Source of the DNA: Burkholderiales bacterium
GTDB lineage: Bacteria > Pseudomonadota > Gammaproteobacteria > Burkholderiales > WYBJ01
DNA length: 64,000 nucleotides
Reading direction: 5' to 3'
NCBI GenBank assembly: GCA_020848435.1
Contig: JADLAC010000043.1
Location: 670 to 64,669 of the forward strand
Positions 17,984 through 38,787 of this stretch are shown here, piece after piece. The position numbers and the translations under genes are program-made. The first letter of the stretch is position 1; each line of letters begins with the position of its first letter. The notes below the pieces were generated by a model. The model was not told the DNA's origin, searched no databases, and was given only the letters and a program-made list of their open reading frames with translations.

Positions 17984-18080
17984 GCACAGCTCGCGCCACC
18001 GCTCCTCGTGAACGCTGCTCGCCGTGAACCTGGCCCTCGGCGATGCGTTCGCTCAGGCGACCCTCCCTCGGAAAAACCTC

Positions 18081-18485
18081 TTATGGAAGCAACCGGGTTC
18101 GAAGCCCGTAGCGTTCGTAGACTGGCAATGCACGCCGGTCGCAAGTGACCAGCTCCGCATCGAATCCCGCCGCTGTTGCCGCCACGAGCGCGTCGTATGC
18201 GGCTCCCCCAGACACCGATCGCTCGGGCAGTCCAAGGACGAATTCCCTGAAGGTCCGCTCATTCATCCGCAACCACGGCTCGGGAAATCGTAACGTGAGG
18301 AAGTCACGCACCGTTTCACCCGAGGCGCGGTGGGGCGACGGCAACCGGGTGAGCACGGAATAGGTTTCGAGCGCGCAGTGCTCGATCAAGCGCAGCCCGC
18401 TGTCCAGCGCGCGCCTCGCGGCCTCGTGGCTTTCATGCCAGGACGCAAATGCGGCGATCACCAGGCTCGTGTCGGCGGCTCTCAC
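18081..18485 (-). CDS. vapC: PIN-domain ribonuclease toxin VapC (134 aa)
   Basis: (GTG)RAADTSLVIAAFASWHESHEAARRAL...AYDALVAATAAGFDAELVTCDRRALPVYERYG shows the PIN layout (DTS...D...D near the C-terminus). The GTG start overlaps the antitoxin stop as GTGA. Confidence 0.85.
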   Translation of the reverse strand: MRAADTSLVIAAFASWHESHEAARRALDSGLRLIEHCALETYSVLTRLPSPHRASGETVRDFLTLRFPEPWLRMNERTFREFVLGLPERSVSGGAAYDALVAATAAGFDAELVTCDRRALPVYERYGLRTRLLP

Positions 18486-18727
18486 CGCCGAACCCGCTCC
18501 AATGTATCTCGCACTTGCTCGGCGCTCAGCGATGGCAGCGGAGCATCCGGAATCGCGACGACGCCTTTCCCACGCTTCTTCAGCCGCATCGCGGTCGGCG
18601 CGATCTGGATTTCCAATCGCCCGTCGCCTGCTCGGATCTCTACCGTCTGGCCGGCTTTAAGGCCCAAGGCCTCGCGCATTGCCTTCGGCACGACGATTCG
18701 TCCTGCGGCATCGATCGTGGTTTGCAT
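18482..18727 (-). CDS. vapB: AbrB/MazE/SpoVT-fold antitoxin VapB (81 aa)
   Basis: MQTTIDAAGRIVVPKAMREALGLKAGQTVEIRAGDGRLEIQ is the swapped-hairpin AbrB motif. An alternative ATG lies 4 codons upstream at 18739. The tracked ORF continues upstream without a stop through a decayed XRE gene. Confidence 0.8.
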   Translation of the reverse strand: MQTTIDAAGRIVVPKAMREALGLKAGQTVEIRAGDGRLEIQIAPTAMRLKKRGKGVVAIPDAPLPSLSAEQVRDTLERVRR

Positions 18728-18856
18728 GCCACCAAGCATGGCATAACAATGGTATGCGAGCAATACCTCGTCTTCATCCATATGCCGGCGGATCTGCGGT
18801 CGATGAAGCGGGATGTACCGGATAAGCCCGGTCGGTTCGAGTGCGCTCCTTCGCAT

Positions 18857-19113
18857 GCCTCCAGCCTTCTTGACCCGGAGCCGCACCAACATGCCAGCGC
18901 GTGCGGCAACGAGTACGTGTGCATCGAGGCCAAGCGGATCGATCCGGCCGTTGAGCAGCAAGTTAAACCGTGGCTGTGTGAGTCCGAGGCGCTTCGCCGC
19001 TTCGGTCCGAGTCGGCCCGCTCTTGCGGTGGAAGTCCCGATGCGCACTATGAGCTCGGCCCGCAGCTGCAGGTTTTCCGCTCCCCCCCGCGCAGTGCCAA
19101 GGCCCTTGAACAC
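18857..19113 (-). pseudogene. Frameshifted paralog of the XRE antitoxin at 10182..10502
   Basis: The N-terminal half is in one frame (tracked ORF 18640..19113: FKGLGTARGGAENLQLRAELIVRI). The HTH half is in another (tracked ORF 18482..19126: KSGPTRTEAAKRLGLTQPRFNLLLNGRIDPLGLDAHVLVAARAGMLVRLRV). A 1-nt shift near 19020 joins them. The native stop is also lost. Confidence 0.55.
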
Positions 19114-19196
19114 GTTGCCGCCTCATCGAGTGCGCCTCGGTTCCGCGCTCATCTTCCGCGTGTCCTCTAGCGCATCAGCGCTCTGAACCCAGGACC

Positions 19197-20165
19197 TCAC
19201 TGCTGCTCCACCTTCGCCATCTTGACGATCCGGCCCCAGATCTCGAAGTTCCTGCGCATCAATGCGCCCAGCTCCTCGGCGGAGGTCGGCGTCACGTCGT
19301 AGCCCTGCTTGTTCAGCGCGGCCGCGGTCTCCTTGTCGGCCAGGGCCGCATGGAGCGTTCGATTGAGCTTCGCGATCACCGCCGCGGGCGTATTGAGCGG
19401 CGCGAGCACCGCGTGGTAGATCCCGGGCAGGTCGAAGCCTTTCATCCCCGCCTCTTCCATGGTAGGCACCTCGGGCAGGTAGTGATGACGCGCGGTGTCG
19501 GCCACGCCGATGATGCGCAGCTTGCCCGCGCGCGCGTGCGGCAACACGTGTCCCATGCCCGCGAACATGAAGCCGATGCGCCCGCCGAGAAGGTCCGTCA
19601 ACGCCGGACCGCTGCCCTTGTACGGCACATGGATCAGGCGCACCCCGGAGACATGCTGGAGCAGCTCTCCCGCCAGGTGATTGGAAATCCCGACACCGGC
19701 CGAGCCGTAGCTCGCCTTGGTCGGATCGGCGTTGGCCAACGCGAGCAGCTCGGACACCGACTTCACCGGCAGGCCGGCGCTGACCACGAGCACGTTGACG
19801 GTGCTTACGGTCTTGGCGATCGGGGCATACCCCAGTGGATCGTACGACAGCGACTTGTAGATGTGCGGGTTGAGCGCATGGGTGGAGTCCGTGGTCCAGA
19901 ACAGCGTGTAGCCGTCGGGCGCCGCCTTCTGCACGTACTGCGCGCCGATGCCGCTGCCGGCGCCGGGCTTGTTGTCGATGATGACCTGTTGGCTGAGCAA
20001 CGCCGCCAGCTTGTGCGCGACGGTGCGCGCGGCGGTATCGGTCGCGCCGGCGGGATAGGCGACGACGATGCGGATCAGCTTGGCCGGATACTCCTGCGCG
20101 CGGGCGTGCGGCGCGGCCAGCAGCGCCGACAGCACCAAGCCCATTACCCATGTCCTAGCTTGCAT
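19197..20165 (-). CDS. Bug/TctC-family substrate-binding protein (322 aa)
   Basis: The ATG at 20165 follows AAGGAG. MQARTWVMGLVLSALLAAPHARAQEYPAKLIRIVVAYPAGATD... Confidence 0.9.
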   Translation of the reverse strand: MQARTWVMGLVLSALLAAPHARAQEYPAKLIRIVVAYPAGATDTAARTVAHKLAALLSQQVIIDNKPGAGSGIGAQYVQKAAPDGYTLFWTTDSTHALNPHIYKSLSYDPLGYAPIAKTVSTVNVLVVSAGLPVKSVSELLALANADPTKASYGSAGVGISNHLAGELLQHVSGVRLIHVPYKGSGPALTDLLGGRIGFMFAGMGHVLPHARAGKLRIIGVADTARHHYLPEVPTMEEAGMKGFDLPGIYHAVLAPLNTPAAVIAKLNRTLHAALADKETAAALNKQGYDVTPTSAEELGALMRRNFEIWGRIVKMAKVEQQ

Positions 20166-20283
20166 TCCCAGCTCCTTCACGAGATCGATTCGTTTCCAAG
20201 CCCAAGTTGAGATCACTGCGTTTGCGCACGCAGCTTCGGGGGACCACCTCGGCGCCACGCGCAACCGATGCTCAACGCGAGCT

Positions 20284-22827
20284 CTATGCCGGCCCCGCCT
20301 GGGGCGCCTTGCCGCGAGGCAATGGCGGCAACGCCCGCGTCCCGATGACGCCGCGCGCGGCGAGAGCTTCGAGCTCCGAGGCGGACAACCCGAGCAGGCG
20401 CCCCAGCACCTCGGTGTTGTGCTCGCCCAGCGTGGGGGCGGGGCTGCGTACGGCAAAGGGCACGCCCTGCTCGCGAAACGGCGCCGAAGCCTGCGGCTGC
20501 TCGCCTACGTGCTCGCGGCGCACGCTCTGCCAGAAGCCGCGCACGGCGAGATGCGCATCGGAGAGCAGTTCCCCCGGCGACAGCACCGCGCCGGCGGCGA
20601 CCCCGGCGCGCTGCAGCTCGAGCATCGCGTCGGCCTTGGTGCGTCGGCTCGTCCAAGCTTCCACGCGCGCATCGATCTCGTCGTGCCGGGCGCGCCGCCC
20701 ATCGGCATGGGCAAGCTCCGGGTCGCGCGCGAACGCATCGAGGCGCATCACCGCGCACAGTGCGCGCCACATCGCATCATCGGTAACCGCCACCAGCACC
20801 CACTCGTCGGCGCCCTCGCAGCGATAGATGCCCTGCGGCGCGTGCATCGGGTGGCGATTGCCCGCGCGCGGCCCGATGCCGCCGTTGGCCGACTGCTCGA
20901 TCACCCAGGGTGCGGCGAGCGAGAGCATGCACTCGACCTGGGACAGATCGATGAACTGGCCGGCGCCGGTGCGTTTGCGATGCAGGAGCGCGGTCAACAG
21001 GGCCGCGCACGCATTGAGGCCGCTGACGGCATCGCCGTAGGCGACATGGTTCTGCACCGGCGGGTCCTGCGCCCGCCCCGACACGCTCGGCAGCCCCGAG
21101 CCATGCTCGAGCGTCGAACCGTAGGCGCGCAAATCGCTCCAGGCGTTGTTCGCGCCGAAGGCGTTCATCGACACCATCACCAGCGAAGGATTCACCGCGA
21201 CCAGCCGCGCATAGTCGAGGCCGAGCTTCGGCAGCACGCCCGCCGAGTTGTTCTCGATCATCCCATCGGCGAGCGCGACCAGCCGCTTGAGCAGATCGAC
21301 GCCCTCGGGCGCGGTGAGATCGAGCGTGATGCCGCGCTTGTTGCGATTGAGCAGGTTGAAGCGCGAGCTCTTCTCGTAGAGCATCTGTTCATACACCGCC
21401 GCGTGGCGCTCCTGCCCGCGCCACCAGTCGGGGTAGCGCACCGCTTCCACCTTGATGATGTCGGCGCCGAGGTCCCCCAGCATGCGGGTCGCGATGGGTC
21501 CCGCCCAGCCCATCGACAGGTCGATGATGCGCGTACCGGCGAGCGGCAGCGCCGGCGGCGCCACGTCGATCCTGACCGGCGCGAACGGCGAGCGCTCGCG
21601 CGACGCGGCCGCCAGCGCATCGTGCTCAGCGGGCCGCGGCACCACCCCGCCCGCCGAGGGCGGTGTGCGCGTCAGGCGTAGCGGGCAACCCGGCGCGCGC
21701 ACCGTGCGGCTACCCGCGCGCAGCTCGACGAAGCTCCCGCGCTGTGCCCACACCGGCTGCGCCAACAGCTCCGCCATATCGGGGACGATCGCGATCGGCA
21801 GTTTCAATCGCAGCGCATCCTGCAGCCATTCGTGCGCGCTGCGCTGCTCGAAGCGCGCAGCGAGCAGCGACCCCAGCTCGGCCGCGCGCTTGGCCCGCGC
21901 GACCGCGTTGGCGTAATCGGGATGATCCCCGAGCTGCGGCATTTCCAGCAGGGCGCACAAGGCTCGCCACTGGGCGGGCGAATTGCAGGTGACACCGATC
22001 CGGCCTGCCTTGCAGGCAAAGATGCCGAGCGTGCCGCCCGAGGTGAAGAGATTGACCCCAGCGCGACGTTCCTCGTAGCCGGGCACCAGACGGGAGATAT
22101 CCAGCTCCGACAAGGCCGCCGCGGCCTCGTGCACGCTCACCTCGAAATAGCGGCCGCGAGCGCCGTCCACGCGCGCCATCAATGCGGCGACCAGCGCGAT
22201 GAAGGCCGACAAGCCGCCGATGATCCCCGCCTGGTAGTCGGGCAGGGTGAGCGGCGGCCCCTCGACCGGACCCACTAGCTTCACGAGCCCCGCGAGCGCG
22301 CGGCAGACCGCGTCCGTACCCCGGAAGTCCCGATACGGGCCGCTCGCGCCGAACCAGCTTACATCGGCGATCACCAGGTGCGGATGCGCGCGCGCCAGCT
22401 CGGCATGGTCGATCCCCGCCGCCGGCCGGGCGCTGCCGATCGTGCCGTCGACCAGCACGTCGGCGCCGGCCACCAACGCGGCGAGCCCATCCTCGGTCGC
22501 GGCGATGCTGCGCTTGTTGGCATTCAAGAAGGCGAAGAACGCGCTCTCGCGCCGGTCCGCGCCGATGTCGAAGACGGGGAGCGCGCGTCGCGCCGGGTCG
22601 CCTTGCGGGGCTTCCACCTTGATCACGTCCGCACCGAAATCGGCCAGCAGGCGGGCACAGTATGCCGCCGCGGGTAAGGTGCCGAGCTCGATCACCCGCA
22701 CGCCGGCGAACGGCGCCGGCTCACGGCCAGCGGTCGGCTTCGCCATGTCGCGTCGCCGCCCATGCTCGCGCCCTGCGCTGGAAGGCCTCGGCTCACGGCC
22801 AGCGGCCGGCTTCGCCGGCGAGTGCAT
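20284..22827 (-). CDS. Tandem-fused family III (CaiB/BaiF) CoA-transferase with two complete domains in one ~847-aa polypeptide
   Basis: Domain 1 is FAGVRVIELGTLPAAAYCARLLADFGADVIKVEAPQGDPAR. Domain 2 is LAGTRIIDLSMGWAGPIATRMLGDLGADIIKVEAVRYPDWWRG. I prefer the ATG at 22827, directly after GAGGAGAAGGGAG. Alternatives are 22746 and 22845. Confidence 0.85.
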   Translation of the reverse strand: MHSPAKPAAGREPRPSSAGREHGRRRDMAKPTAGREPAPFAGVRVIELGTLPAAAYCARLLADFGADVIKVEAPQGDPARRALPVFDIGADRRESAFFAFLNANKRSIAATEDGLAALVAGADVLVDGTIGSARPAAGIDHAELARAHPHLVIADVSWFGASGPYRDFRGTDAVCRALAGLVKLVGPVEGPPLTLPDYQAGIIGGLSAFIALVAALMARVDGARGRYFEVSVHEAAAALSELDISRLVPGYEERRAGVNLFTSGGTLGIFACKAGRIGVTCNSPAQWRALCALLEMPQLGDHPDYANAVARAKRAAELGSLLAARFEQRSAHEWLQDALRLKLPIAIVPDMAELLAQPVWAQRGSFVELRAGSRTVRAPGCPLRLTRTPPSAGGVVPRPAEHDALAAASRERSPFAPVRIDVAPPALPLAGTRIIDLSMGWAGPIATRMLGDLGADIIKVEAVRYPDWWRGQERHAAVYEQMLYEKSSRFNLLNRNKRGITLDLTAPEGVDLLKRLVALADGMIENNSAGVLPKLGLDYARLVAVNPSLVMVSMNAFGANNAWSDLRAYGSTLEHGSGLPSVSGRAQDPPVQNHVAYGDAVSGLNACAALLTALLHRKRTGAGQFIDLSQVECMLSLAAPWVIEQSANGGIGPRAGNRHPMHAPQGIYRCEGADEWVLVAVTDDAMWRALCAVMRLDAFARDPELAHADGRRARHDEIDARVEAWTSRRTKADAMLELQRAGVAAGAVLSPGELLSDAHLAVRGFWQSVRREHVGEQPQASAPFREQGVPFAVRSPAPTLGEHNTEVLGRLLGLSASELEALAARGVIGTRALPPLPRGKAPQAGPA
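22717..22816. repeat. 28-nt direct repeat (27/28 identical) spaced exactly 72 bp (24 codons) apart in the 5' end of the CoA-transferase gene
   Basis: 22717-22744 is cggctcacggccagcggTcggcttcgcc and 22789-22816 is cggctcacggccagcggCcggcttcgcc. They encode the duplicated peptide AKP(A/T)AGREP. Confidence 0.85.
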
Positions 22828-23042
22828 CTCCCTTCTCCTCGACACGCGCAGCCTGCGACCACATGGTGGCGCTTGCGCCGCTCGCGCTCTACTCCCGGCG
22901 CGCTCGACGCAATCTCATCCTTCAGCGAAACGACGCCATGGCGGTCGCACGCCGTGACCACAATGCGAAATCGCGATCGCGCTTCGCCTGTGAATACTGG
23001 ACGATGTGCGGGGATTGTGCAACCATCGCCGCTGAGGGAGCC

Positions 23043-26000
23043 ATGAAGAAGACAGGCACGCAAGCAATCGTCGCCGCCGTGCCGAACTGTTCACGCATAC
23101 TGATCGCCAATCGCGGCGAGATCGCGATCCGCATTGAGCGCGCCGCCGCCGACCTCGGGCTCGCTGCGGTCGCCGTGTACGCGAGCGACGACGCCGCCTC
23201 GCTGCACGCGCTGCGTGCGCGCGAATCGGTCGCGCTACAAGGCAGCGGCGCGCGCGCCTATCTCGACATCGACGCGATCATCGCCGCGGCGCGGGCGAGC
23301 GGCTGCGATGCCGTCCACCCCGGCTACGGCTTCCTGTCGGAGAACGCCGCCTTCGCGCAGGCCTGCCAGGCGGCCGGGCTCACCTTCATCGGCCCGCCGC
23401 CGCAGGTGCTCGACGTCTTCGGCGACAAGAGCCGCGCGCGCGATCTTGCGCTCAGCCAAAGCGTGGCGGTGTTGCCCGGGACCCACGGCCCCGCGAGCCT
23501 AGGTACCATCCAGCGCTTCTTCGCCGAGCTGCCGGCGGACTGCGGCATGGTGATCAAGGCGCTGGGCGGTGGCGGCGGGCGCGGCCTGCGCGTCGTTCGT
23601 GCCGCGCACGAGATCGAGCCCGCCTTCGCTGCCTGCACGCGCGAAGCCCTGGCGGCCTTCGGCGACGGCGGCGTCTATGCCGAGCGCCTGATCGCCAATG
23701 CGCGTCATGTCGAAGTCCAGATCGCGGGCGACGGTACGCGCGTCATCGCACTGGGCGATCGCGATTGCAGCTTGCAGCGGCGGCATCAGAAGATCGTCGA
23801 GATCGCGCCGGCGCCTGAGCTGCCGGCAGCGCTGCGCGAAGCGCTGCATGCCGCGGCGGTAAGGCTCGCCGCGGCGGTGAGCTACCGCAGCCTCGGCACC
23901 ATGGAGTTCCTGGTCGACGCGAGCCGCGGTGAATACGCCTTCATCGAGTGCAACGCCCGCCTGCAAGTGGAGCACACGGTCACCGAGGAGGTCACCGACA
24001 TCGACCTCGTGCAGCTTCAGATCGCGCTCGCCCAGGGCCGCACGCTCGCTTCGCTCGGGCTCGATGCGACGCCGCCTTGCCGCGGTTACGCGGTGCAGGC
24101 CCGCGTCAATCTGGAAACGCTGGCCGCGGACGGCACGGTGCGCTCCGAATGCGGGCGCCTGAGCGTCTACGAGCCGCCGAGCGGGCGCGGCGTGCGCGTC
24201 GACGGCTACGGCTATGCGGGCTACGACACCAGTCCCAACTACGACTCGCTGCTCGCCAAGGTGATCGCGCGCGGTGCGAGCTTCGCCGAAGCGGCGGCGC
24301 GCTGCGAGCGGGCGCTGGCCGACTTCCGCATCGACGGCGTGCCAACCAGCATCGCCCTACTGCGTGCGCTGCTCGCCGATCCGGCGGTGCTCGCCGCTCG
24401 CGCCAGCACGCGTTACATCGAAGAGCACGGCGCGGCGCTCATCGATGCAGCATCCAAGCTTGCGCCGCCTCGGCTCGCGGCCGGTGCCGCCCCCGCCGCG
24501 CAGCCGTCGTTCGAGACGCTGGCCGGGGCCACGGCCGTGATCGCGCCACTGCAGGCGACGCTGATCGCGCTGGAAGCCGCCGAGGGCGACCTGGTGAGCG
24601 CGGGCCAGACCGTCGCGGTGCTGGAAGCAATGAAGATGGAGCACGTGATCGGCGCGCCGGTGAGCGGGCGCATCGCGCGCATGGCCGCGGCCGTCGGCGC
24701 GATCGTGCGACGCGACCAGCCGATCGCCTTCATCCTGCCCGCTGAGGTCGAGATTGCCGACTCGGACGAAGAACGCGAGATCGATCTCGACCACATCCGC
24801 CCGGACTTGGCCGAAGTGCTGGAGCGCTGGCGCATGACCCGCGACGAGGCCCGCCCGCAGGCGGTTGCCAAGCGCCGCGCGCGCAACCAGCGCACCGCCC
24901 GCGAGAATATCGACGACCTGCTCGATCCCGGCAGCTTCATCGAATACGGCGCGTTCGCCATCGCCAGCCAGCGCAGCCGCCATTCCGTGGAGCACCTGCT
25001 CAAGATGAGCCCGGCCGATGGGCTCATCACCGGCGTGGGCACGGTCAACGCGGCGCTGTTCGGCGCCGCGCAGGCGCGCATCGCCGCGCTCGCCTACGAC
25101 TACACCGTGCTCGCGGGTACCCAGGGCGGTATCAACCACTACAAGACCGATCGCATTCTCGGCATCGCGCTGGAGCACAAGCTGCCCATCGTCTGGTATA
25201 CCGAGGGCGGCGGCGGCCGCCCGGGCGACGATCGCAGCGGTCCGGGTCACCGCACCTTCGGCGCGATCGGCGAAGTCTCGGGCGAGGTGCCGATGATCGC
25301 GATCGCCTCGGGCTATTGCTTCGCCGGCAATGCCTCGGTCGCCGGCATGTCCGACATCCTGATCGCCACCAAGGGAAGCAATCTCGGCATGGCGGGCCCG
25401 GCTATGATCGAGGGCGGCGGCATGGGCATCGTCAAGGCCGCCGACATCGGCCCGCTGCACGAGCAAGTGGCCAACGGCGTGGTGGACATCGTGGCCAACG
25501 ACGAGGCCGACGCCACACGGCTCGCGAAAGAAGCACTGTCCTATTTCCAGGGTCGCACCACCGGTTGGGCGTGCGCCGACCAGCGCCTGCTGCGCAACGC
25601 GATTCCCGAGAACCGGCTGCGCGCCTTCGACGTGCGCGCGCTGATCCGCACGCTGGCCGATACCGGCTCGATGCTGGAGCTGCGCCCCGAGTTCGGCCGC
25701 CCCATAATCACCGCCTTAATCCGCATCGAGGGCCGCCCCGTCGGTCTGATCGCGAACGACAACCACCACTTGGGCGGCGCCATCGACTGCGATGGCGCCG
25801 ACAAGGGCACGCGCTTCATGCTCCTGTGCGACAACTACGGCATCCCGGTGTTGAGCCTGGTCGACACCCCGGGGTTCATGGTCGGGTTGGAGAGCGAGCG
25901 CAAGGCGGCGGTGCGCAAGACCTCGCGCATGTTCCTCGCCGGCGCCAAGCTCGGCGTGCCCTTCCTCGCCGTGGTGCTGCGCAAGTGCTACGGCCTGGGC

Positions 26001-26327
26001 GCGAGCGGCATGACCGGCGGCTCGCGCATGGACCCGATGTTCTCGGTCTCCTGGCCCACCGGCGAGTTCGGCCCGATGAACCTCGAAGGCGCGGTGCAGC
26101 TCGCCTATCGCAAGGAGCTCGCGGCGCAACCCGACGACACCGCCAGGAAGGCGCTGTACGACAAGTTGCTCGGCAACCTGTACGCGCTGGGCAAGGCGAC
26201 CGAGCACGCCACGCACCTGCGCATCGATGCGGTCATCGACCCGGCCGACACCCGCCGCTGGATCATCGCCGGCCTGGACGCCGCCAAGCGCAAGCACCCC
26301 AGCCGCCGCTGGGTGGACGCATGGTAG
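23043..26327 (+). CDS. Single-chain biotin-dependent acyl-CoA carboxylase: biotin carboxylase, BCCP and carboxyltransferase fused (1094 aa)
   Basis: The ATG at 23043 follows GAGGGAG. The BC domain is ILIANRGEIAIRIERAA...MVIKALGGGGGRGLRVV. The BCCP carries the biotinylation motif VLEAMKMEH. The C-terminal ~520 aa are a PccB/AccD-like carboxyltransferase. The tracked ORF starts 127 codons early. Confidence 0.9.
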   Translation: MKKTGTQAIVAAVPNCSRILIANRGEIAIRIERAAADLGLAAVAVYASDDAASLHALRARESVALQGSGARAYLDIDAIIAAARASGCDAVHPGYGFLSENAAFAQACQAAGLTFIGPPPQVLDVFGDKSRARDLALSQSVAVLPGTHGPASLGTIQRFFAELPADCGMVIKALGGGGGRGLRVVRAAHEIEPAFAACTREALAAFGDGGVYAERLIANARHVEVQIAGDGTRVIALGDRDCSLQRRHQKIVEIAPAPELPAALREALHAAAVRLAAAVSYRSLGTMEFLVDASRGEYAFIECNARLQVEHTVTEEVTDIDLVQLQIALAQGRTLASLGLDATPPCRGYAVQARVNLETLAADGTVRSECGRLSVYEPPSGRGVRVDGYGYAGYDTSPNYDSLLAKVIARGASFAEAAARCERALADFRIDGVPTSIALLRALLADPAVLAARASTRYIEEHGAALIDAASKLAPPRLAAGAAPAAQPSFETLAGATAVIAPLQATLIALEAAEGDLVSAGQTVAVLEAMKMEHVIGAPVSGRIARMAAAVGAIVRRDQPIAFILPAEVEIADSDEEREIDLDHIRPDLAEVLERWRMTRDEARPQAVAKRRARNQRTARENIDDLLDPGSFIEYGAFAIASQRSRHSVEHLLKMSPADGLITGVGTVNAALFGAAQARIAALAYDYTVLAGTQGGINHYKTDRILGIALEHKLPIVWYTEGGGGRPGDDRSGPGHRTFGAIGEVSGEVPMIAIASGYCFAGNASVAGMSDILIATKGSNLGMAGPAMIEGGGMGIVKAADIGPLHEQVANGVVDIVANDEADATRLAKEALSYFQGRTTGWACADQRLLRNAIPENRLRAFDVRALIRTLADTGSMLELRPEFGRPIITALIRIEGRPVGLIANDNHHLGGAIDCDGADKGTRFMLLCDNYGIPVLSLVDTPGFMVGLESERKAAVRKTSRMFLAGAKLGVPFLAVVLRKCYGLGASGMTGGSRMDPMFSVSWPTGEFGPMNLEGAVQLAYRKELAAQPDDTARKALYDKLLGNLYALGKATEHATHLRIDAVIDPADTRRWIIAGLDAAKRKHPSRRWVDAW

Positions 26328-26381
26328 GCGTGCAACGAAACAGCCCCACGAAAGGATGATCTCGAATTGGATGCGGATCGC

Positions 26382-27872
26382 ATGCAGGCAGACGTGGTCG
26401 TGGTGGGCGGGGGCGGCGCCGGGCTGGCCGCGGCCATCGGTGCGCGCCAGGCCGGCGCCGATGTCGTCTTGTTGGAGAAGAACCCGATCCTCGGCGGCAC
26501 CACGGCCCGATCCGTGGGATCGATCAGCGCCACCGGCACGGCGCACCAGCGCCGGCACGGAATCGCCGACACGCCCGAGGAGCACTACCGCGACATGCCG
26601 CTGTTCGCCGACGGCAAGCATCCGGACAACGACGAGCTGCGCCGCGTGCTCACCGACAACGTGCCGGAGACGTTCCGTTGGCTCGGCGCCGCAGGGGTGG
26701 AGTTCTTCGGGCCGTCGGAGGAGCCGCCGCACACCAAGCCGCGCATGCACAACGTGCTGCCGAATTCGCGCGCGTACATCTTCCATCTCGAGAACACGGC
26801 GCGGCGGCTGGGCGTTCGCATCCTGACGCAAGCGCGCGCGCGCCGACTGGTCACCTCCGGCGGCAGAGTGAGCGGGGTAGAGCTCGATCGCGGCGCGGCC
26901 GCGGGCGCCGTCGTCGAGGCCGGGCGCGGCGTGATCCTGGCTGCCGGCGACTACGCCGCCAACGTGGAGATGAAGCGCGCTCTGATCGGCGAAGCGGTCG
27001 CCATCACCGAGCCGACCAATCCGACCAGCACCGGCGACGGCATCCGCATGGGACTCGAGCTGGGCGGCAGCATCATCAACGGCGAGCGCTATTCCGGCGG
27101 CATTCGATTCGTGGCACCCACGAAACCGTCCTGGCTCACCGGGCTGCCGCCGTCGCGCTGGCTCATGCGCCCTGCCGGCCTCGCTTTGCGCCGCGCCCCG
27201 TCGGCGCTGGTGCGCAAGTTCCTGATGGGCTTTCTCACGACCGTGCTGGTGCCCTCGGCGCGGCTGTTTTCCGACGGCGCGATCCTCGTCAACGCCAATG
27301 GCGAGCGCTTCGCCGAAGAACGCCAGAAGATGGTCGCGGAGCTCGCGTACCAGCCCAGCGGGGTCGCGTACATCGTATTCGACGGCGCTCTGGGCGAGCG
27401 CTTCATGCGCTGGCCGAACTTCATATCGACCGCGCCCGGAATTGCGTACGCCTACCTCGACGACTACGAACGAAACCGTCCGGATCTCTTTCACAGAGCC
27501 CGCAGCGTCGAGGCCCTCGCGCGCGATCTGGGCATGGACCCGTCGCATCTGAGCGCGACGCTTTCGGCGTACAACGAGACCGCCGGGACGCTCGCAGGGG
27601 CATCGCCGCGCGGCGATCGACCGGCGCTCGCGGCGCCACCGTACTATGCGCTCGGGCCGGTCAAGAACTTCATCAACTTCACCGACGGCGGCCTGGCGGT
27701 GAATACGCGGCTGCAAGTGCTCGACCAAGCCGGCGCGCCCATCGCGGGGCTTTATGCCGCCGGATCGAACGGCCAGGGCGGCTTATTGCTCGACGGCCAC
27801 GGCCATCACCTGGGCTGGGCCTTCACGTCGGGACGCCTCGCCGGCGCCTACGCCGCCGCGAACGGCGCGTAG
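26382..27872 (+). CDS. FAD-dependent oxidoreductase (fumarate reductase / KstD / TcuA-like flavoprotein fold)
   Basis: MQADVVVVGGGGAGLAAAIGARQAGADVVLLEKNPILGGTTARS is a dinucleotide-binding motif, with ...GLYAAGSNGQGG near the C-terminus. The start is either ATG 26382 or TTG 26367. Confidence 0.8.
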   Translation: MQADVVVVGGGGAGLAAAIGARQAGADVVLLEKNPILGGTTARSVGSISATGTAHQRRHGIADTPEEHYRDMPLFADGKHPDNDELRRVLTDNVPETFRWLGAAGVEFFGPSEEPPHTKPRMHNVLPNSRAYIFHLENTARRLGVRILTQARARRLVTSGGRVSGVELDRGAAAGAVVEAGRGVILAAGDYAANVEMKRALIGEAVAITEPTNPTSTGDGIRMGLELGGSIINGERYSGGIRFVAPTKPSWLTGLPPSRWLMRPAGLALRRAPSALVRKFLMGFLTTVLVPSARLFSDGAILVNANGERFAEERQKMVAELAYQPSGVAYIVFDGALGERFMRWPNFISTAPGIAYAYLDDYERNRPDLFHRARSVEALARDLGMDPSHLSATLSAYNETAGTLAGASPRGDRPALAAPPYYALGPVKNFINFTDGGLAVNTRLQVLDQAGAPIAGLYAAGSNGQGGLLLDGHGHHLGWAFTSGRLAGAYAAANGA

Positions 27873-27889
27873 TCGGCTCGATCGGCGTC

Positions 27890-28879
27890 TCACTCGCCGC
27901 GGATGTTGGCGTCCTTGATCAACTTCGCCCACAGCGCCATTTCCGTGCGCCGGATGTGCGCGTATTGCTGCGGCGTGGTATCGGCCGGCAGGTAGCCGAT
28001 CTTGCTCATCAACGCGACGACATCGGGCATGCGCACCACCTTTGCCGTCTCCTCGTACAGGCGCCGTACGATTGCCGGCGGGGTGCGCGCCGGCGCCTCG
28101 AAGCTGCTCCAGGCCTGGACGTGAAATCCGGGGAAGCCCGACTCGATCATCGTCGGCAGCTCGGGCATCAGCGCGGAGCGTTCCAGGCCGGTGCCCGCCA
28201 GCGCGCGCAGCCTGCCCGCGCGCACGTGCGCGAGGGAAGCCGCGAAGCTGCCGAAGATCATCTGCGCCTCGCCGGCGAGCACGGCGGTGGCGGCAGGAAC
28301 GCCGCCCTTGTAGGCAACGTGCACGATGTCCACGCCGGCGCGATGCTTGAAGAGCTCCGCCGCGAGGTGCAGCGGGCTGCCGATGCCGCCCGAGGCATAG
28401 TTGAGGCTGCGCGGCTTGGCCCTCGCCAGGGCCACGAGCTCGCCGACGCTCGCGGCGGCGACCGAAGGGTGGACGGCCAGCATGAAGGATGCGGTCGCGA
28501 ACTGCGTGATCGGCGCGAAGTCCCTGGCCGTGTCATAAGGCAGCTTGTACAGGCTGGGCGCGGCGGTCACGCCCGTCGACGAGCCCATGAAGAGCGTGTA
28601 ACCGTCGGGCGCGGAGCGGGCGACGATCTCGGCCGCGAGTACGCCCGCGGCCCCCGGCCGATTGTCGATCACGATCGGCTGGCCCAGCGCCTGGCCCAGC
28701 TTCGGCGCAATCAGCCGTGCCATCGAGTCGGTACCACCGCCGGGCGGAAACGGAAGCACGAGCCGGACCGGCCGCTCGGGGTAGACCTGGGCGGGTGCGG
28801 GATCGATGCCCGCCAGCAACGCGACGGCGAAGGTCGCGAAGCGCACGCACATGCGGCGCCGATAGGAACACGAGTACAT
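27890..28879 (-). CDS. Bug/TctC-family substrate-binding protein (329 aa)
   Basis: The ATG at 28879 follows GGAGGTGATCG. ...FAVALLAGIDPAPAQVYPERPVRLVLPFPPGGGTD... Confidence 0.9.
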   Translation of the reverse strand: MYSCSYRRRMCVRFATFAVALLAGIDPAPAQVYPERPVRLVLPFPPGGGTDSMARLIAPKLGQALGQPIVIDNRPGAAGVLAAEIVARSAPDGYTLFMGSSTGVTAAPSLYKLPYDTARDFAPITQFATASFMLAVHPSVAAASVGELVALARAKPRSLNYASGGIGSPLHLAAELFKHRAGVDIVHVAYKGGVPAATAVLAGEAQMIFGSFAASLAHVRAGRLRALAGTGLERSALMPELPTMIESGFPGFHVQAWSSFEAPARTPPAIVRRLYEETAKVVRMPDVVALMSKIGYLPADTTPQQYAHIRRTEMALWAKLIKDANIRGE

Positions 28880-28943
28880 CGATCACCTCCATGGATGCGG
28901 CACAAGCGAAGCGTACAGCGAACGACCTGCGGTGCAAATCGCA

Positions 28944-29247
28944 CCCGCTCGCGCAAGCAGGCCGATCTCACAATGATCGATACCCGGGGCATGAACGTGT
29001 TCGGCATCGTGCCCGGGGGGGCGATCCCGTCGATGCGGTGGTGATGAATGCGGAAGCGGCCGACATCGACGCCGTGATGGTCGCGGGGCACTTCGTCAAG
29101 CGCGACGGCAAGCTCGCGTTTCCCGAAGCGCGGCTGCACGAGCCGCGCGCGCAGGCGTTGGAATCGCGCCTGCGGCTCATGGCGCAGGCCGATTATGCGT
29201 ACGCGCCGTTTCCGCGCGGTCCGCTGCCCGAGCGTTACCTCGTATAG
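28944..29247 (+). pseudogene. C-terminal remnant (~95 codons) of an amidohydrolase-superfamily gene, frameshifted in a G7 run
   Basis: One frame reads KQADLTMIDTRGMNVFGIVPGG. After the G run at 29015-29021 the next frame reads DPVDAVVMNAEAADIDAVMVAGHFVKRDGKL.... Joined, these form the typical amidohydrolase C-terminus. No N-terminal ~300 codons exist, and the Bug gene start lies 65 nt away. Confidence 0.6.
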
Positions 29248-29447
29248 GAGCCGCATGCGTTCCGTGGCGAGGATGATGATCTGGGCGGCCGGCGTAGTTC
29301 CGCGGGCCAGAGGCGCTTGGTCGTCCTCGATACCCAGCTTCTTCTTCCGCGTGGAAGCCGTTCGCGACGCGAGGCAGCACACGCTCGCACCGCGATCGTC
29401 GCTAGAATAGTCGCATCGGCCGCACAATCCTGGGGAGGACGACATCG

Positions 29448-30917
29448 ATGGGACCGACGCAAGCACTCGCGCAATGGACCGCGGGATTGCGCTACGACGA
29501 CCTGGCGCGGGAGGTCGTCGAGCAGGCCTGCCACATCATCGCGGATACGCTCGGCTGCTGCCTGGCGGCCTTCGCCGAGGACCGGGAGAAGTGCCGCGTC
29601 GCCACCGGCGTAGCGAAGCTCTACGCCGATCCGCGCGGCGCGACCGTGATCCGCGGCCGCGGGCTGCGCGCGCGCCCGGCGTTCGCCGCGCTTGCCAACG
29701 GCATACTCGCCAATGCCGCCGACAACGACGACACCCACAAGCGCGCGCTGCTGCATACCGGCTCGGTGGTCGTGCCGGCCGTGCTCGCGATGGCGCAGGC
29801 GCACCGGCGCTCCGGTGCGGATGCCATCGCGGCACTGGTGGCCGGATACGAAGTCGCGGTGCGCGTGGGCATGGCGGTGATGCCGACGCATTACCGCTTC
29901 TGGCACAGCACAGCTACCAACGGCACCTTCGGCGCTGCCGCGGCCGCCGCCTACGCGTTGGGGCTGGATGCCGGCGGCGTGCAGCGTGCGCTCGGCCTCG
30001 CCGGCACCCAGGCCGCCGGCCTCAACACCTTCTTCGAGTCCGGCGACATGACCAAGAGCATCCATCCGGGTAAGGCCGCGTGCAACGGCATCCTGTCGGC
30101 GGAGCTCGCCCGCCTCGGCGCCACCAGCCCGCCGGCGATCCTCGAGCACCCGAAGGGCTATCTCGCCGCGTTCTCGACCGATCCCGATCCGGCAGCGCTG
30201 GTGCGGGGGCTGGGCACGCAGTGGGAGATCCTGCAAAACGGCTTCAAGTACTTCCCCTCGATCCTGGCGAGCCACTCGCCGATCCAGGCGACGCTGCGAA
30301 TCGTACAGAAACACCCGGTCGATGCGCGTGACATCGTAGCCATCACCAACGAAACCTACAACACGGTGAAGAGCCACTTCAGCAACAAGACGGTCGGCAG
30401 CGTCATGGCGGCGCGCGTTTCAGTGCCGTATTGCATCGCCATCGCGGCGGTCGACCGCGAGCTGACCCAGCGGCAGTTCACGCCGCAACGTTACACCGAC
30501 CCGCTGGTACAGCAGGTGCTCGCGAAGACCGAGGTGGTGGCCGATGAGAAGCTCAACAAGCTCTACCCCGACAAGTTTCCGGCGCGGGTCACCATCCGCT
30601 TGAAGGACGGGACGGCGCTGCAGGAAACCGTGCTGTTCCCGAAGGGCGATCCGCAGGACCCGCTCTCGGCAGCCGAGCTTGAAGCCAAGTTCCGTGACAA
30701 CGCGGCCGCCTGCCTCACCTCCGCCGAGGCCGATGCACTGCTGGATGCGATCTACGCGTTGCCGAAAGCTGGGAGCGTGTCGCGGCTTGCGCGCTTGCTC
30801 GCAGGCGCGCCGGCTTCGAAGCGAATGTTGCCCGCGAAGGCCGCAGGGCGATCGACCAAAGGGCGTGCGAGGCTCGCGCGGCGCACGAAAGCAGCGCGCA
30901 AGCGCGGCTTGAAATAG
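29448..30917 (+). CDS. MmgE/PrpD-family protein (2-methylcitrate dehydratase superfamily) with a Lys/Arg-rich C-terminal tail
   Basis: MGPTQALAQWTAGLRYDDLAREVVEQACHIIADTLGCCLAA... is a typical MmgE/PrpD N-terminus. The ATG follows GGGGAGGA. The tail is ...KAAGRSTKGRARLARRTKAARKRGLK. Confidence 0.9.
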   Translation: MGPTQALAQWTAGLRYDDLAREVVEQACHIIADTLGCCLAAFAEDREKCRVATGVAKLYADPRGATVIRGRGLRARPAFAALANGILANAADNDDTHKRALLHTGSVVVPAVLAMAQAHRRSGADAIAALVAGYEVAVRVGMAVMPTHYRFWHSTATNGTFGAAAAAAYALGLDAGGVQRALGLAGTQAAGLNTFFESGDMTKSIHPGKAACNGILSAELARLGATSPPAILEHPKGYLAAFSTDPDPAALVRGLGTQWEILQNGFKYFPSILASHSPIQATLRIVQKHPVDARDIVAITNETYNTVKSHFSNKTVGSVMAARVSVPYCIAIAAVDRELTQRQFTPQRYTDPLVQQVLAKTEVVADEKLNKLYPDKFPARVTIRLKDGTALQETVLFPKGDPQDPLSAAELEAKFRDNAAACLTSAEADALLDAIYALPKAGSVSRLARLLAGAPASKRMLPAKAAGRSTKGRARLARRTKAARKRGLK

Positions 30918-30958
30918 CGCGCTGCGAATCGATCTTCGCGCGGGCGCTCGCGGGCTGC

Positions 30959-32032
30959 TCAGTTCGCCGGTATCGTGATCAGCGGAAGCTGCGGCACCGC
31001 GCCCGTCTCCGCGATCGACGAAAAGATCCGCAGGAAGGTGAACACCCGTTTGGAGCTCAGATCGCGATCGTCGATCCAGAACCAATGGTCGCGATAGCGC
31101 ACGGCGATGTACGCGTCCTGCGGCGGCGTGACGCTCGAGCGAATGCGCGCGAGCGGGTACTCGCCCGGGCCGGCCGCCGCGGCTGCTGGGTTCGGCTCGC
31201 GCGCGCGCCCTTCCGCCAGGTGCTGCTGCGGGACTTCCACGCCGGCGGAGAGCTCCACCAGCATTTCCATCAGCGAGCGCGTGAGCAGCGTGAGCTCGTT
31301 GTCCCGATGCCGCAACGAGCCGAAGCCGAGCTCCAACTCCTTGACCGCGTCCGGGATGCCGAGCGCCCGCTTGAGGTCCAGGATCGCGGCGCCCAGATCC
31401 GCGTCGACCTGCTCGCGAAAGAAGATGATCGTCACGTCCCCGGCGCGTGTCTTCTGTACCCGCACCCCCAACGCGCCCGCCTGCTGCAGGCGTCGAAACG
31501 CGCGAATCACCCGCTCGAACTCGGGATCGCGAGCGCGGGCGCGAGCGGGCGCGCCCGAATAGTTATAGACATCGTTGATCGCCCGTACGCCGGCCTGCAG
31601 GATGAAGTCGGCTTGGTGGCCCGCCTGGATCATGGCGAAAATCGCCTGCGGCGGGATCGGCCGCAGCAGATGATTGACGAACTTTTCGCCGGCGAGCGGC
31701 GCATATGCGATGGTCGGCCGATCGATATAGATCCCGCTCGCGCCGAGCTCCTTGTAAGTCCCCTGCGGCGCGCTGCGGAAGATGCGCGTGCCCAGCTCCA
31801 CCTGGCTCTGCAAAGTATATGAGCTGATCACCGACGACACGTCGAGGAACACCGGCGGGTCGAAATAGCGCAGCTTGACGATGTTGAGCAGCGCCTGTTC
31901 TTTCCAGGAATCGCCGATGGCGGTCGCGTAGTCGAGCCGATCGCGCTGCACGCTGCCCACGCCGATGGTCTGGCACGCGGACAACATGCCCGCCAGCAGG
32001 ATCAGCGCCGTCGGGTGGATCGATGGGCGCAT
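30959..32032 (-). CDS. Hypothetical lipoprotein (~357 aa)
   Basis: MRPSIHPTALILLAGMLSAC has a lipobox (L-S-A-C). It lies immediately downstream of the CocE/NonD gene: stop 32045-32047, GTG 32044, ATG 32032. I recognise no family. Confidence 0.6.
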   Translation of the reverse strand: MRPSIHPTALILLAGMLSACQTIGVGSVQRDRLDYATAIGDSWKEQALLNIVKLRYFDPPVFLDVSSVISSYTLQSQVELGTRIFRSAPQGTYKELGASGIYIDRPTIAYAPLAGEKFVNHLLRPIPPQAIFAMIQAGHQADFILQAGVRAINDVYNYSGAPARARARDPEFERVIRAFRRLQQAGALGVRVQKTRAGDVTIIFFREQVDADLGAAILDLKRALGIPDAVKELELGFGSLRHRDNELTLLTRSLMEMLVELSAGVEVPQQHLAEGRAREPNPAAAAAGPGEYPLARIRSSVTPPQDAYIAVRYRDHWFWIDDRDLSSKRVFTFLRIFSSIAETGAVPQLPLITIPAN

Positions 32033-32044
32033 GGCGAGATGCAC

Positions 32045-34066
32045 TCAGTTGCCCTTGCGTGCCACGCGCTGGTCGAAGCTGCGGTCGAAGACTCGCGCTT
32101 CGCCTTCGAAGCCCGCGACCCGCGCCGCGATCACGAAATGCCGCGCCGTGCACGTCACCGTCGTACTGCATAACGTGCGAATGCGCCAATCCCCGCGCTC
32201 GAACTCCCACTGGCAATCCATCGCGGCGCTCGCCCGCAGCGGATCGTCCTCGCGCACGCTGTAGCGCTCGGTCGAGCGGGCCTCGGCGATGAGATCGATT
32301 TCATCGTAGCGGATGCGTCCGCCGCGGTCGTCGATCTCGACCACGGTATCGCCGGTGCCAACGTCGGTGTGGATCGAGCGCCGGCGTCCGCCCGTTGTGA
32401 GCACGGTACGCGCCGCCGGCGGCGCGGCTTCCAAGCGCGGGAAGCGCACCGCCTGGTCGGCGCGCAACGGCGGGCGCCGCGGCAGCTCGATGCTGCTCTT
32501 GCCGGTGAAGAGCGTCAGCGTCACGGGCGCGGGCGAGGGCCAGATAAGCGGCCAGTAGGTCGTCGACAGCGCGACCCGGATGCGATGTCCGCGCTCGAAC
32601 GCGTAGCCGGCCGGTGTCAGCGGCACGCGCACGCGATAGCGCTTGCCGGGCACCAGTGGGGTCGGACGCTCGGCGCCGGCGAGATGCGTGAGGTTGAGCA
32701 CGCCGTAAGTCGCGCGCGCGGAGGTGCCGTCGGTGGCCACGTCGCACAACCGCACGCAGATGAACGCCGCCGGGCGATCCACGGCAAGCTCCAGGGTTGC
32801 TATCGGCGCACCGAGGATTTCCAGCCGGCGCGGGAGCGGATCGGAATCGAACACGAGCGACTTGCCGTCGTCGGCACGCTGGTCGCCCGGAAGTTCCGCG
32901 CTCTCGCCGTGTTGGAACCACGGCATCAGCTCGCCGCATTCGAGCCCCAGGGTCTGCGGCGATCGCCATTGCACCCGGCTCACCTTCCCAGCCCGAGCCG
33001 CCAGTCGCCCGCTTGCGTTCAATGCCAAGCGCATCGGCTCGATGCGCGGCGAGGGCCACGTCGCCTCGACCACCCAGCGCCCGGGCGATTGCGCGTAGAA
33101 GGGCTTCGCCGGCACCGGCCCCGCCATCCAGGCGGTGAGCATGGGCTCGCGCAACATGCCGCTATCGCGCCCGCGCATCCATTGGTCGAACCAGCGCAGC
33201 GTCTCCTGCAGAAAGCCGACCGCCGGACCGGGCACGCCCAGGTGGGGAAACCGATGGCCCCACGCGCCGATCAGGCCGCGGCGGGGAACATCGAGCTTCG
33301 CCAACGCTTCGCCCACCGCGCCGACGTAGGCGCCGTCGGCCCAGCCGCTCGCCGCATAGACGGGGCACCGGATCCTGCCGAAATCGATCGCCCGGCTCTT
33401 CCAGTAGGCGTCGTGCGCCTGGTGCTCGAGCGCCGCGATGACCTGGGGCGCATCGTGCTCGAGCCGCTCCAGCCACATGGCGCGCCAGCGTTCGCCGACC
33501 CGCCTGGGGTCGGGCGGGCGCGATTTATAGCCCATCATCTGCGTCGACCAGCGGATCGAGCGCAGCAGCACGCAGCCGCCGCGATACACCTGGCTGTAAA
33601 TGTATCGATCCGGCGCGAACGAGCACGGCACGATCGCCTTGAGCTGAGCCGGGCTGCGGTATGCCGTCTGGATGGCCTGGAAGCCGCCCCAGGAGAGCCC
33701 GAACATCCCGACCTGGCCGTCGCTCCAGGGCTGGGCGGCGATCCATTCCAACACGCTCAAGGTGTCGTCCTGTTCCTGGCGCATCGCGAACACGCCCTGG
33801 TGGCCGTCGGAGTCGCCGGAGCCGCGAATGTCCACGCGCAGACAAGCGTAGCCATGGCCCGCGAAATAGCGGTGGTGCATTGCATCGCGCGGCGCGGAGA
33901 TGTCGCGGCTGCGATACGGCAGCACTTCGATGATCGCAGGCACGCGCCGGCTGCGGGCCATGTCGGGCAGCCAAAGCTTCGCGGCAAGTCGCGCGCCGTC
34001 GGGCATCGGTATCCAGCAGTCGTCGGTCTCGGCCCAGGTGTGCGGAAAGCGTTCGATGGTCTTCAT
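32045..34066 (-). CDS. CocE/NonD-family (S15 X-Pro dipeptidyl-peptidase-like) alpha/beta hydrolase
   Basis: MKTIERFPHTWAETDDCWIPMPDGARLAAKLWLPD...VPAIIEVLPYRSRD...GYACLRVDIRGSGDSDG...VGMFGLSWGG contains the nucleophile elbow GxSWGG. The tracked ORF starts 13 codons earlier. Confidence 0.85.
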   Translation of the reverse strand: MKTIERFPHTWAETDDCWIPMPDGARLAAKLWLPDMARSRRVPAIIEVLPYRSRDISAPRDAMHHRYFAGHGYACLRVDIRGSGDSDGHQGVFAMRQEQDDTLSVLEWIAAQPWSDGQVGMFGLSWGGFQAIQTAYRSPAQLKAIVPCSFAPDRYIYSQVYRGGCVLLRSIRWSTQMMGYKSRPPDPRRVGERWRAMWLERLEHDAPQVIAALEHQAHDAYWKSRAIDFGRIRCPVYAASGWADGAYVGAVGEALAKLDVPRRGLIGAWGHRFPHLGVPGPAVGFLQETLRWFDQWMRGRDSGMLREPMLTAWMAGPVPAKPFYAQSPGRWVVEATWPSPRIEPMRLALNASGRLAARAGKVSRVQWRSPQTLGLECGELMPWFQHGESAELPGDQRADDGKSLVFDSDPLPRRLEILGAPIATLELAVDRPAAFICVRLCDVATDGTSARATYGVLNLTHLAGAERPTPLVPGKRYRVRVPLTPAGYAFERGHRIRVALSTTYWPLIWPSPAPVTLTLFTGKSSIELPRRPPLRADQAVRFPRLEAAPPAARTVLTTGGRRRSIHTDVGTGDTVVEIDDRGGRIRYDEIDLIAEARSTERYSVREDDPLRASAAMDCQWEFERGDWRIRTLCSTTVTCTARHFVIAARVAGFEGEARVFDRSFDQRVARKGN

Positions 34067-38778: not shown

Positions 38779-38787
38779 GTTTGCTCC

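Follow-up and report, generated by a model that had tools for sequence, protein, structure and literature searches.

A putative three-gene module for uptake, CoA activation and carboxylation of an organic acid in a Burkholderiales bacterium

Gene organization of the locus

In the metagenome-assembled genome (MAG) of a Burkholderiales bacterium, a 64,000-bp stretch of contig JADLAC010000043.1 (positions 670–64,669; termed the window in the following) harbours adjacent genes for a solute receptor, a fused CoA-transferase and a biotin-dependent carboxylase, which, judged from gene content and comparison across genomes, rather likely represent a conserved three-gene module for organic-acid uptake, CoA activation and carboxylation. 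The core members are (i) TctC_a, a TctC/Bug-type periplasmic solute receptor of 322 amino acids (aa) encoded at 19197–20165 on the minus strand (Pfam TctC, 225 bits), (ii) a fused double family III CoA-transferase of 820 aa, encoded at 20284–22746 on the same strand, and (iii) a single-chain biotin-dependent acyl-CoA carboxylase of the LCC family with 1094 aa, encoded at 23043–26327 on the plus strand. The latter two genes are divergently oriented and separated by a putative promoter region of 296 bp (22747–23042), as read directly from the sequence.

Downstream of the carboxylase gene follow an FAD_binding_2 oxidoreductase of 496 aa (26382–27872, plus strand; Pfam and NCBIfam), a second TctC/Bug receptor (TctC_b; 27890–28879, minus strand; Pfam TctC, 237 bits) and an MmgE/PrpD-family protein of 489 aa (29448–30917, plus strand; Pfam MmgE_PrpD_N and _C), all of which lie outside the conserved module. 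An original prediction, made for 20284–30917, had combined these six genes into one locus; each of them is present with strong domain matches and in the orientation described, and the Bug receptor ascribed to the CoA-transferase does exist, though outside the interval named. The six genes are spread over four or more transcription units, which alternate in orientation, and their reading frames are backed by third-codon-position G+C contents (GC3) of 0.85–0.90 in a window of generally high G+C content.

The carboxylase is assigned to start at the ATG at 23043, preceded by GAGGGAG, within a long open reading frame (ORF) that opens at 22662; the resulting length of 1094 aa also matches the NCBI product of the same MAG. 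Starts at 22746 for the CoA-transferase (820 aa) and at 26382 for the FAD oxidoreductase (496 aa) likewise agree with NCBI products P0121 and P0241, respectively. The NCBI label of the carboxylase, "carbamoyl-phosphate synthase large subunit", is corrected here to LCC-type biotin carboxylase on the basis of the similarities described below.

Fused family III CoA-transferase

The CoA-transferase comprises two CoA_transf_3 stretches in one chain (Pfam, 605 bits), i.e., an N-terminal (encoded at ~21541–22746) and a C-terminal half (~20284–21561), which share 32 % sequence identity. Within the C-terminal half, Asp572 (codon 21031–21033) aligns with D178 of BbsF, the residue carrying the CoA adduct in PDB 9FOL, and is unchanged in 12 of 12 aligned homologues. 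At the position equivalent to the catalytic Asp, the N-terminal half has Gly, and each of the 12 homologues has Gly, Ala, Ser or Cys. Because of this consistent replacement, the N-terminal half is probably non-catalytic and devoid of a canonical nucleophile. Asp170 and Gln172 are conserved nearby, but four residues off the catalytic position.

An AlphaFold2 model based on the 12-sequence alignment (pLDDT of 81 and pTM of 0.90 for the whole chain) places the two halves confidently. Its best fold match is succinyl-CoA:(R)-benzylsuccinate CoA-transferase BbsEF (PDB 9FN0/9FOL; chains B/D, TM score of 0.90 per half), and each half superimposes on BbsF, Frc and SUGCT with TM scores of 0.83–0.90. The C-terminal half also has its best sequence match in BbsF (219 bits, 34 % identity), whereas the best PDB matches of the N-terminal half are 4ED9 and SUGCT. 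The enzyme resembles BbsEF, in which two different family III units likewise form one enzyme and the CoA-carrying D178 corresponds to Asp572. The most fitting description is that of a pseudo-heterodimer fused into one chain, with a single canonical active site. It differs from BbsEF in that the units are fused into a single chain, that the N-terminal half is not especially BbsE-like, and that no bbs-type genes accompany it, whereas BbsEF is encoded in the bbs operon for β-oxidation. An identification as BbsEF itself was rejected on the latter ground and on the identity of only 34 %; genes for toluene catabolism (bbs) were not found in the annotated parts of the window, while the host possesses sox genes for sulfur oxidation. 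Burkholderiales, Reyranella, Acetobacteraceae and Bradyrhizobium commonly possess fused homologues of 780–830 aa.

LCC-type biotin-dependent carboxylase

All domains of a biotin-dependent carboxylase are united in one chain (Pfam Biotin_carb_N, CPSase_L_D2, Biotin_carb_C, Biotin_lipoyl and Carboxyl_trans). Counted along the long ORF, they are arranged as biotin carboxylase (BC, residues 144–588), biotin carboxyl carrier protein (BCCP; Biotin_lipoyl, 633–691) and carboxyltransferase (CT; Carboxyl_trans, 738–1213), the protein itself having 1094 aa. The complete ATP-grasp BC domain is retained, and the biotinylation motif EAMKME is located at residues 528–533 with the predicted biotinyl-Lys531 (codon 24633–24635). 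Homology to the LCC of PDB 4RCN (MapLCC) extends from end to end (1025 bits, residues 18–1075 on 4–1070), and the single chain of ~1,090 aa, the BC-BCCP-CT order and the EAMKME motif are shared with this family, which also includes PA1400 of Pseudomonas aeruginosa and the single-chain carboxylase of Deinococcus (PDB 5FIF/5H80).

The CT domain was placed by comparing PDB match scores. Taken alone, it scores 588 bits with LCC (4RCN) and 579 bits with the Deinococcus enzyme (5FIF), compared to 231 bits with 12S transcarboxylase, ~215 with the β-subunit of propionyl-CoA carboxylase (PCC; PccB), 148 with that of geranyl-CoA carboxylase (GCC) and 143 with that of methylcrotonyl-CoA carboxylase (MCC). 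Among the PCC, MCC, GCC and LCC clades, between which the original prediction had not decided, these comparisons assign the domain to LCC (588 versus at most 231 bits). Of the classical enzymes, PCC and 12S transcarboxylase are the next most similar (215–231 bits), and by these scores the CT domain is nearer to carboxylases acting on the α-carbon than to those acting on the γ-carbon. Similarity to PCC is far weaker than that to LCC, and PCC consists of separate α- and β-subunits, unlike the single-chain enzyme of the window.

An LCC-type enzyme would be expected to form a homohexameric, domain-swapped holoenzyme and to prefer long-chain acyl-CoA. LCC-type single-chain carboxylases were solved structurally in 2015, and a proposal on their physiological role reportedly rests on P. 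aeruginosa mutants (Tran et al. 2015). The family is very large (at least 7,999 proteins at E < 1e-50). Literature mentions found for PA1400, the P. aeruginosa homologue, refer to biotinylation only. Kinetic data on LCCs are given in PMC6491548.

Receptor TctC_a and transport

The gene for TctC_a is located downstream of the CoA-transferase gene on the same strand (118-bp gap), its start being preceded by GAAGGAG. The N-terminus, MQARTWVMGLVLSALLAAPHARAQE, has the appearance of a signal peptide by inspection. Among solved relatives, the terephthalate-binding receptor 8HKA of a tripartite tricarboxylate transporter (TTT) matches best (228 bits); as this similarity is generic to Bug proteins, it was dismissed as a clue to the ligand. 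Orthologues of TctC_a (63–79 % identity) likewise follow the CoA-transferase gene in three related loci (L001, L084 and L085).

An orphan TctC gene behind an enzyme gene, and several such units side by side, are also typical of the Bug/TctC-linked pairs of Burkholderiales, which involve CaiB-type CoA-transferases or MmgE/PrpD proteins. The receptor/CoA-transferase pair of the window differs from these in being tied to an LCC across genomes and in that TRAP or ABC systems may replace the TTT. The transporter type beside the two enzymes varies between TTT, TRAP and ABC while the enzymes stay, which fits an imported acid.

Conservation of the gene neighbourhood

The linkage that had been predicted between CoA-transferase, its Bug receptor and carboxylase is borne out by related genomes, with the trio retained in L001/L005, L084 and Cupriavidus metallidurans CH34, and the CoA-transferase/carboxylase pair in many lineages. 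In the closest relative (L001/L005), the LCC gene (78 % identity of the product) is divergently oriented to the CoA-transferase gene (67 %) and to a tandem pair of genes for TctC_a paralogues (68 and 65 %). This pair is located at 7561–9596 of L001, between the genes for CoA-transferase and carboxylase, the window having only one such gene. L084 shows the same divergent arrangement of LCC (74 %) and CoA-transferase (67 %), followed by TctC (63 %). In L085, the CoA-transferase (73 %) is followed by TctC (79 %), and the contig stops before any carboxylase gene could appear.

On the second replicon of strain CH34, LCC (53 %), fused CoA-transferase (46 %) and TctC (40 %) form a compact co-directional trio in this order (L171), with LCC at 1,645,473–1,648,679 of NC_007974.2 and the other two directly behind it. 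The trio is bordered by TniA/TniB/resolvase genes and a gene for a cytochrome c peroxidase. TniB, the Mu-like TniA transposase and the resolvase are located directly beside the trio (NC_007974.2, ~1,648,851–1,653,426), which suggests that the module can move as a unit.

A survey centred on the CoA-transferase covered 80 genome loci with fused relatives at 47–67 % identity, about 36 of which contain an LCC gene within 10 kb. Outside Bradyrhizobium, LCC genes are present in 10 of 42 loci, and at least 8 more contain separate genes for PCC-β-like CT and/or BC, several directly abutting the CoA-transferase gene. The pair of fused CoA-transferase and LCC occurs in at least eight distinct gene orders in many lineages, including (i) HyuB-HyuA-solute-binding protein / MR_MLE / CoA-transferase-Dpp-type ABC-LCC in Bradyrhizobium (with LCC right after the CoA-transferase in L058), (ii) TRAP DctM-CoA-transferase-LCC in a Desulfuromonadales MAG, (iii) ligase-LCC ... 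TctC, CT, CoA-transferase in Acetobacteraceae, and (iv) further arrangements on several metagenome contigs.

The Bradyrhizobium cluster (L054, L058 and ~30 more loci) comprises genes for hydantoinase/oxoprolinase subunits B and A, a LivK-type binding protein and an MR/MLE enolase-superfamily member, and continues, sometimes via an amidohydrolase gene, with those for the fused CoA-transferase, the Dpp-type ABC transporter and LCC. This cluster hints at a precursor that contains nitrogen (lactam- or peptide-like) in this genus. Ten loci (L016, L021, L022, L024, L028, L038, L053, L066, L067 and L077) have a stand-alone PCC-β-like CT (~545 aa, 27–33 % identical to the LCC CT domain) encoded beside the fused CoA-transferase, sometimes with a full LCC in the same locus, suggesting this CT to be a second, possibly BC-independent partner of the fused CoA-transferase family.

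A second survey, centred on LCC (80 metagenome loci, relatives at 46–64 % identity), revealed fused CoA-transferases nearby in 4 loci, single family III CoA-transferases in 8 and AMP-forming acyl-CoA ligases in 15, so that a dedicated acid-activating gene is found near LCC in about a third of the sampled loci of the family. Other recurrent neighbours are short-chain dehydrogenases/reductases, ABC transporters, acyl-CoA dehydrogenases, TetR regulators and enoyl-CoA hydratases. In a neighbour-joining tree of 112 LCCs, members linked to CoA-transferases or ligases are scattered across the whole family, and the LCC of the window clusters with those of L001 and L084, beside unlinked Caulobacterales-like sequences. 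We read this distribution as LCC enzymes habitually acting on CoA esters which would be supplied by a dedicated activating enzyme encoded nearby; in the branch of the window, the fused CoA-transferase would play this part, with a solute receptor serving it.

FAD oxidoreductase, TctC_b and PrpD-like protein

The original prediction had assumed a single catabolic pathway for a C4–C7 di- or tricarboxylic or branched acid, involving both Bug receptors, CoA-transferase, carboxylase, FAD dehydrogenase and the PrpD-like protein as (de)hydratase or decarboxylase. While its three-gene core stands, the FAD, TctC_b and PrpD-like genes fall outside, and a pathway of all six genes is unlikely. No homologue (E < 1e-5) of the FAD oxidoreductase, the PrpD-like protein, or the CocE/NonD hydrolase and unk361 encoded further downstream was detected in 83 loci around relatives of the fused CoA-transferase or LCC, and in 80 further LCC loci, FAD homologues were likewise absent and PrpD was represented by a single distant homologue (34 %, L138). 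In related genomes, therefore, the CoA-transferase/carboxylase pair is linked, but the FAD and PrpD genes are not. Moreover, synteny with L001 (blastn) breaks off precisely with the stop codon of the carboxylase gene (26327) and resumes at soxZ/soxY (39643–40245). The intervening 13.3-kb block of the window (26328–39642), which carries the FAD gene, TctC_b, PrpD, unk361, CocE/NonD, TctC_c, Sulf_transp and soxBXA, is absent at the corresponding site of L001 (13253–13680). The alternating orientation of the transcription units mentioned above also argues against a six-gene pathway. The sole argument left that ties it to the module is the position of the FAD gene: it begins only 54 bp behind the carboxylase gene in the same orientation, and the intervening sequence contains no terminator-like site.

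The closest homologues of the FAD oxidoreductase (74 and 72 % identity) are encoded after a gene for a small YgaP-like membrane protein, away from any carboxylase gene; one of them stems from the same JGI metagenome sample as L084. More remote homologues (67 % in L086; 51 % on an Ancylobacter plasmid) are located among genes for TctC, DUF4286, MmgE/PrpD paralogues, CoA-transferases and β-oxidation, a setting in favour of the larger pathway; however, the PrpD paralogues there are only 23–42 % identical to that of the window. Best PDB matches of the FAD protein are the flavoproteins of fumarate reductase and urocanate reductase. Assignment to tricarballylate dehydrogenase TcuA was rejected, since both NCBIfam scores are below the cut-offs (152.7, i.e., 153, versus 369 bits, and 86 versus 372.55 bits) and no TcuB-like gene is adjacent; flavocytochrome c is also missed (179 versus 285 bits).

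TctC_b is convergent to the FAD gene (17-bp gap). It shares 33–35 % identity with the CoA-transferase-linked receptors of L084 and L085, and homologues with 47–49 % identity adjoin the FAD homologue in L086.

For the PrpD-like protein, IDS epimerase and cis-aconitate decarboxylase are the best PDB matches (~120–136 bits). A role as 2-methylcitrate dehydratase PrpD was rejected, with NCBIfam scores far under the cut-offs (62 versus 950, 45 versus 575 and 34.5 versus 458 bits) and no prpB/prpC in the locus. Together with the scores of the CT domain, these cut-offs speak against the pathways of propionate/methylcitrate (PCC, PrpD), leucine (MCC), geraniol (GCC), itaconate and tricarballylate (TcuA); that the first three and itaconate do not fit had already been recognized in the prediction. 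The closest homologues (55 % identity; plasmid collection searched), on plasmids of Bosea and Aminobacter, directly adjoin genes for single-domain family III CoA-transferases. This again favours the six-gene pathway, and a working relationship of the FAD and PrpD families with CoA-transferases in general is plausible. At the present locus, the FAD gene, TctC_b and the PrpD-like gene are lineage-specific neighbours and probably part of other Bug-linked catabolic units.

TctC_b and the PrpD-like gene are separated by an unusually long gap of 568 bp (28880–29447). It contains an ORF tail (28930–29247, plus strand) resembling the C-terminus of an amidohydrolase, with no Pfam match and weak tblastn matches to hypothetical proteins of Rhizobium, which may be a gene remnant left by rearrangement.

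Proposed function of the module

According to the proposed mechanism, TctC_a would bind a carboxylic acid in the periplasm and deliver it to TctAB membrane components encoded elsewhere. The fused CoA-transferase, acting as an intramolecular pseudo-heterodimer with Asp572 as nucleophile and the Asp-less N-terminal half completing the fold, would then move CoA from a donor thioester to the imported acid, the donor probably being succinyl-CoA or another dicarboxylyl-CoA by analogy with BbsEF, SUGCT and Frc. Subsequently, LCC would carboxylate the biotin on Lys531 with ATP and bicarbonate, and its PCC-like CT domain would pass the carboxyl group to the α-carbon of the acyl-CoA, yielding a 2-carboxyacyl-CoA (substituted malonyl-CoA). 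This regiochemistry is suggested by the higher scores of the CT domain with PCC/12S as compared to MCC/GCC. Since the trio occurs without further pathway genes in strain CH34 and L001, the product may enter central metabolism via housekeeping enzymes or return its CoA to the next substrate.

For the latter case, one may speculate that the trio operates as a self-contained CoA-recycling shunt, in which the 2-carboxyacyl-CoA formed by LCC serves as CoA donor for the next imported acid. In this improbable scheme, a free carboxylic acid would be converted net to a substituted malonate in an ATP-dependent manner with only catalytic amounts of CoA. It would explain the absence of further pathway genes beside the trio in CH34 and the closest relatives, as well as the lost nucleophile in one transferase half, which may be a dedicated donor-binding site. 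If true, the shunt would represent the first defined physiological role for the LCC family.

Several observations weigh against a three-gene module. Neither the closest unlinked LCC relatives (Caulobacterales-like, 60–66 % identity) nor the LCC of P. aeruginosa have a CoA-transferase gene within 7–10 kb, and for this reason the CoA-transferase/LCC pairing is frequent, but not obligatory. The P. aeruginosa gene is accompanied by a divergent LysR gene only, and linkage with fused CoA-transferase and TTT receptor may be confined to other branches. Neighbour-joining tree and neighbour clustering are rough methods. No tctA/tctB genes were found among the window ORFs scanned, which cover the window in part. 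Finally, given its short distance from the carboxylase gene, the FAD gene may be co-transcribed here and its product could act on the same metabolite.

Decarboxylation or carboxyl transfer was considered as an alternative direction, in which an imported substituted malonate or other dicarboxylate would be converted to its CoA ester and the CT domain would remove or transfer a carboxyl group, resembling the logic of malonate or methylmalonyl-CoA decarboxylase and transcarboxylase. In favour of it, di- and tricarboxylates are the typical ligands of TTT receptors, the closest solved relative of TctC_a binds terephthalate, the nearest characterised CoA-transferases (BbsEF, SUGCT and Frc) use dicarboxylates, and at least 10 other loci have the fused CoA-transferase gene abutting that of the stand-alone CT without an adjacent BC-BCCP gene. 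Retention of the full ATP-grasp BC domain and the biotinylation motif in the enzyme of the window, and the fact that the LCCs so far characterised are ATP-dependent carboxylases (according to PMC6491548), nevertheless make this direction improbable.

There is little probability that LCC, e.g., as a general acyl-CoA carboxylase, is independent of a CoA-transferase/TctC unit that would be just one of the many Bug-plus-enzyme pairs of Burkholderiales. It is true that family III CoA-transferases have many paralogues in these genomes, that such pairs are dense (20 kb of the window hold five or more TctC genes) and that many LCC genes stand alone or beside a LysR or TetR regulator only. In unrelated lineages, however, the fused CoA-transferase is specifically and repeatedly encoded beside LCC or a PCC-like CT, while gene orders and transporters vary, a pattern unexpected for two low-copy genes in multi-megabase genomes.

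In the preferred reading as a three-gene module, all components belong to known families, the carboxylase being a straightforward member of LCC, and the new element is the recurrent coupling of LCC, fused CoA-transferase and receptor. LCC genes often have a neighbour dedicated to acid activation, which in one widespread branch encodes a fused family III CoA-transferase with one half probably inactivated and is accompanied by a solute receptor gene. No literature account was found of LCC being recurrently coupled to such a CoA-transferase and receptor, nor of its coupling to any dedicated acid-activating enzyme. The function of LCC, a nine-year-old question, thereby becomes directly testable in culturable organisms. 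At the same time, the locus is a caution not to take neighbouring Bug-linked genes of Burkholderiales for a single pathway.

Divergent promoter region and genomic surroundings

Within the divergent region between the CoA-transferase and carboxylase genes (22747–23042), no match to the σ70 consensus was found; a promoter/terminator scan yielded nothing exceeding shuffled expectation, and an Rfam scan of 15–36 kb detected zero RNA elements. The region contains one copy (22769–22816) of a 48-nt direct repeat, the other copy of which (22697–22744) falls within the CoA-transferase gene, at its 5′ coding end (79 % identity, 72-nt spacing). The repeat represents a duplication of this 5′ coding end into the promoter region: the upstream copy would encode AKPAAGREPRP, compared to AKPTAGREPAP in the true N-terminus of the CoA-transferase.

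In agreement with the original prediction, no regulator gene is present within 19197–30917. The nearest DNA-binding genes encode a VapB-like antitoxin (18482–~18760) and a LuxR-type regulator (15659–16903). The former belongs to a VapBC-like toxin-antitoxin pair (18081–19126, minus strand) directly downstream of TctC_a, which consists of a PIN ORF (18081–18485) and an AbrB/MazE-type ORF, the long frame of the latter also holding an HTH_37-like stretch; the pair is not a pathway regulator. The section 8001–20000 has a G+C content of 0.62–0.65 as compared to ~0.70 in the locus, and few of its ORFs pass the GC3 filter. Besides the LuxR-type gene, it contains genes for a PEP-CTERM protein (13207–15123) and a TctC protein (~17100–17983).

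On the other side of the locus, TctC_c, the CocE/NonD hydrolase and unk361 are encoded as one unit on the minus strand (35186–30959), unk361 (30959–32044) being a 361-aa protein of unknown family. Beyond this unit, a sox cluster (Sulf_transp and soxBXAZY, 35220–40450) encodes Sulf_transp, a SoxB-like 5′-nucleotidase, the cytochromes SoxX/SoxA, SoxZ and SoxY. It is followed at 42452–50305 by two radical-SAM genes and genes for an LplA-like lipoate ligase, a GATase-like protein and a CCG-domain protein, a set resembling the lipoate-assembly genes (sHdr/LbpA) found in sulfur oxidisers. Sulfur oxidation is thus a probable trait of this Burkholderiales host.

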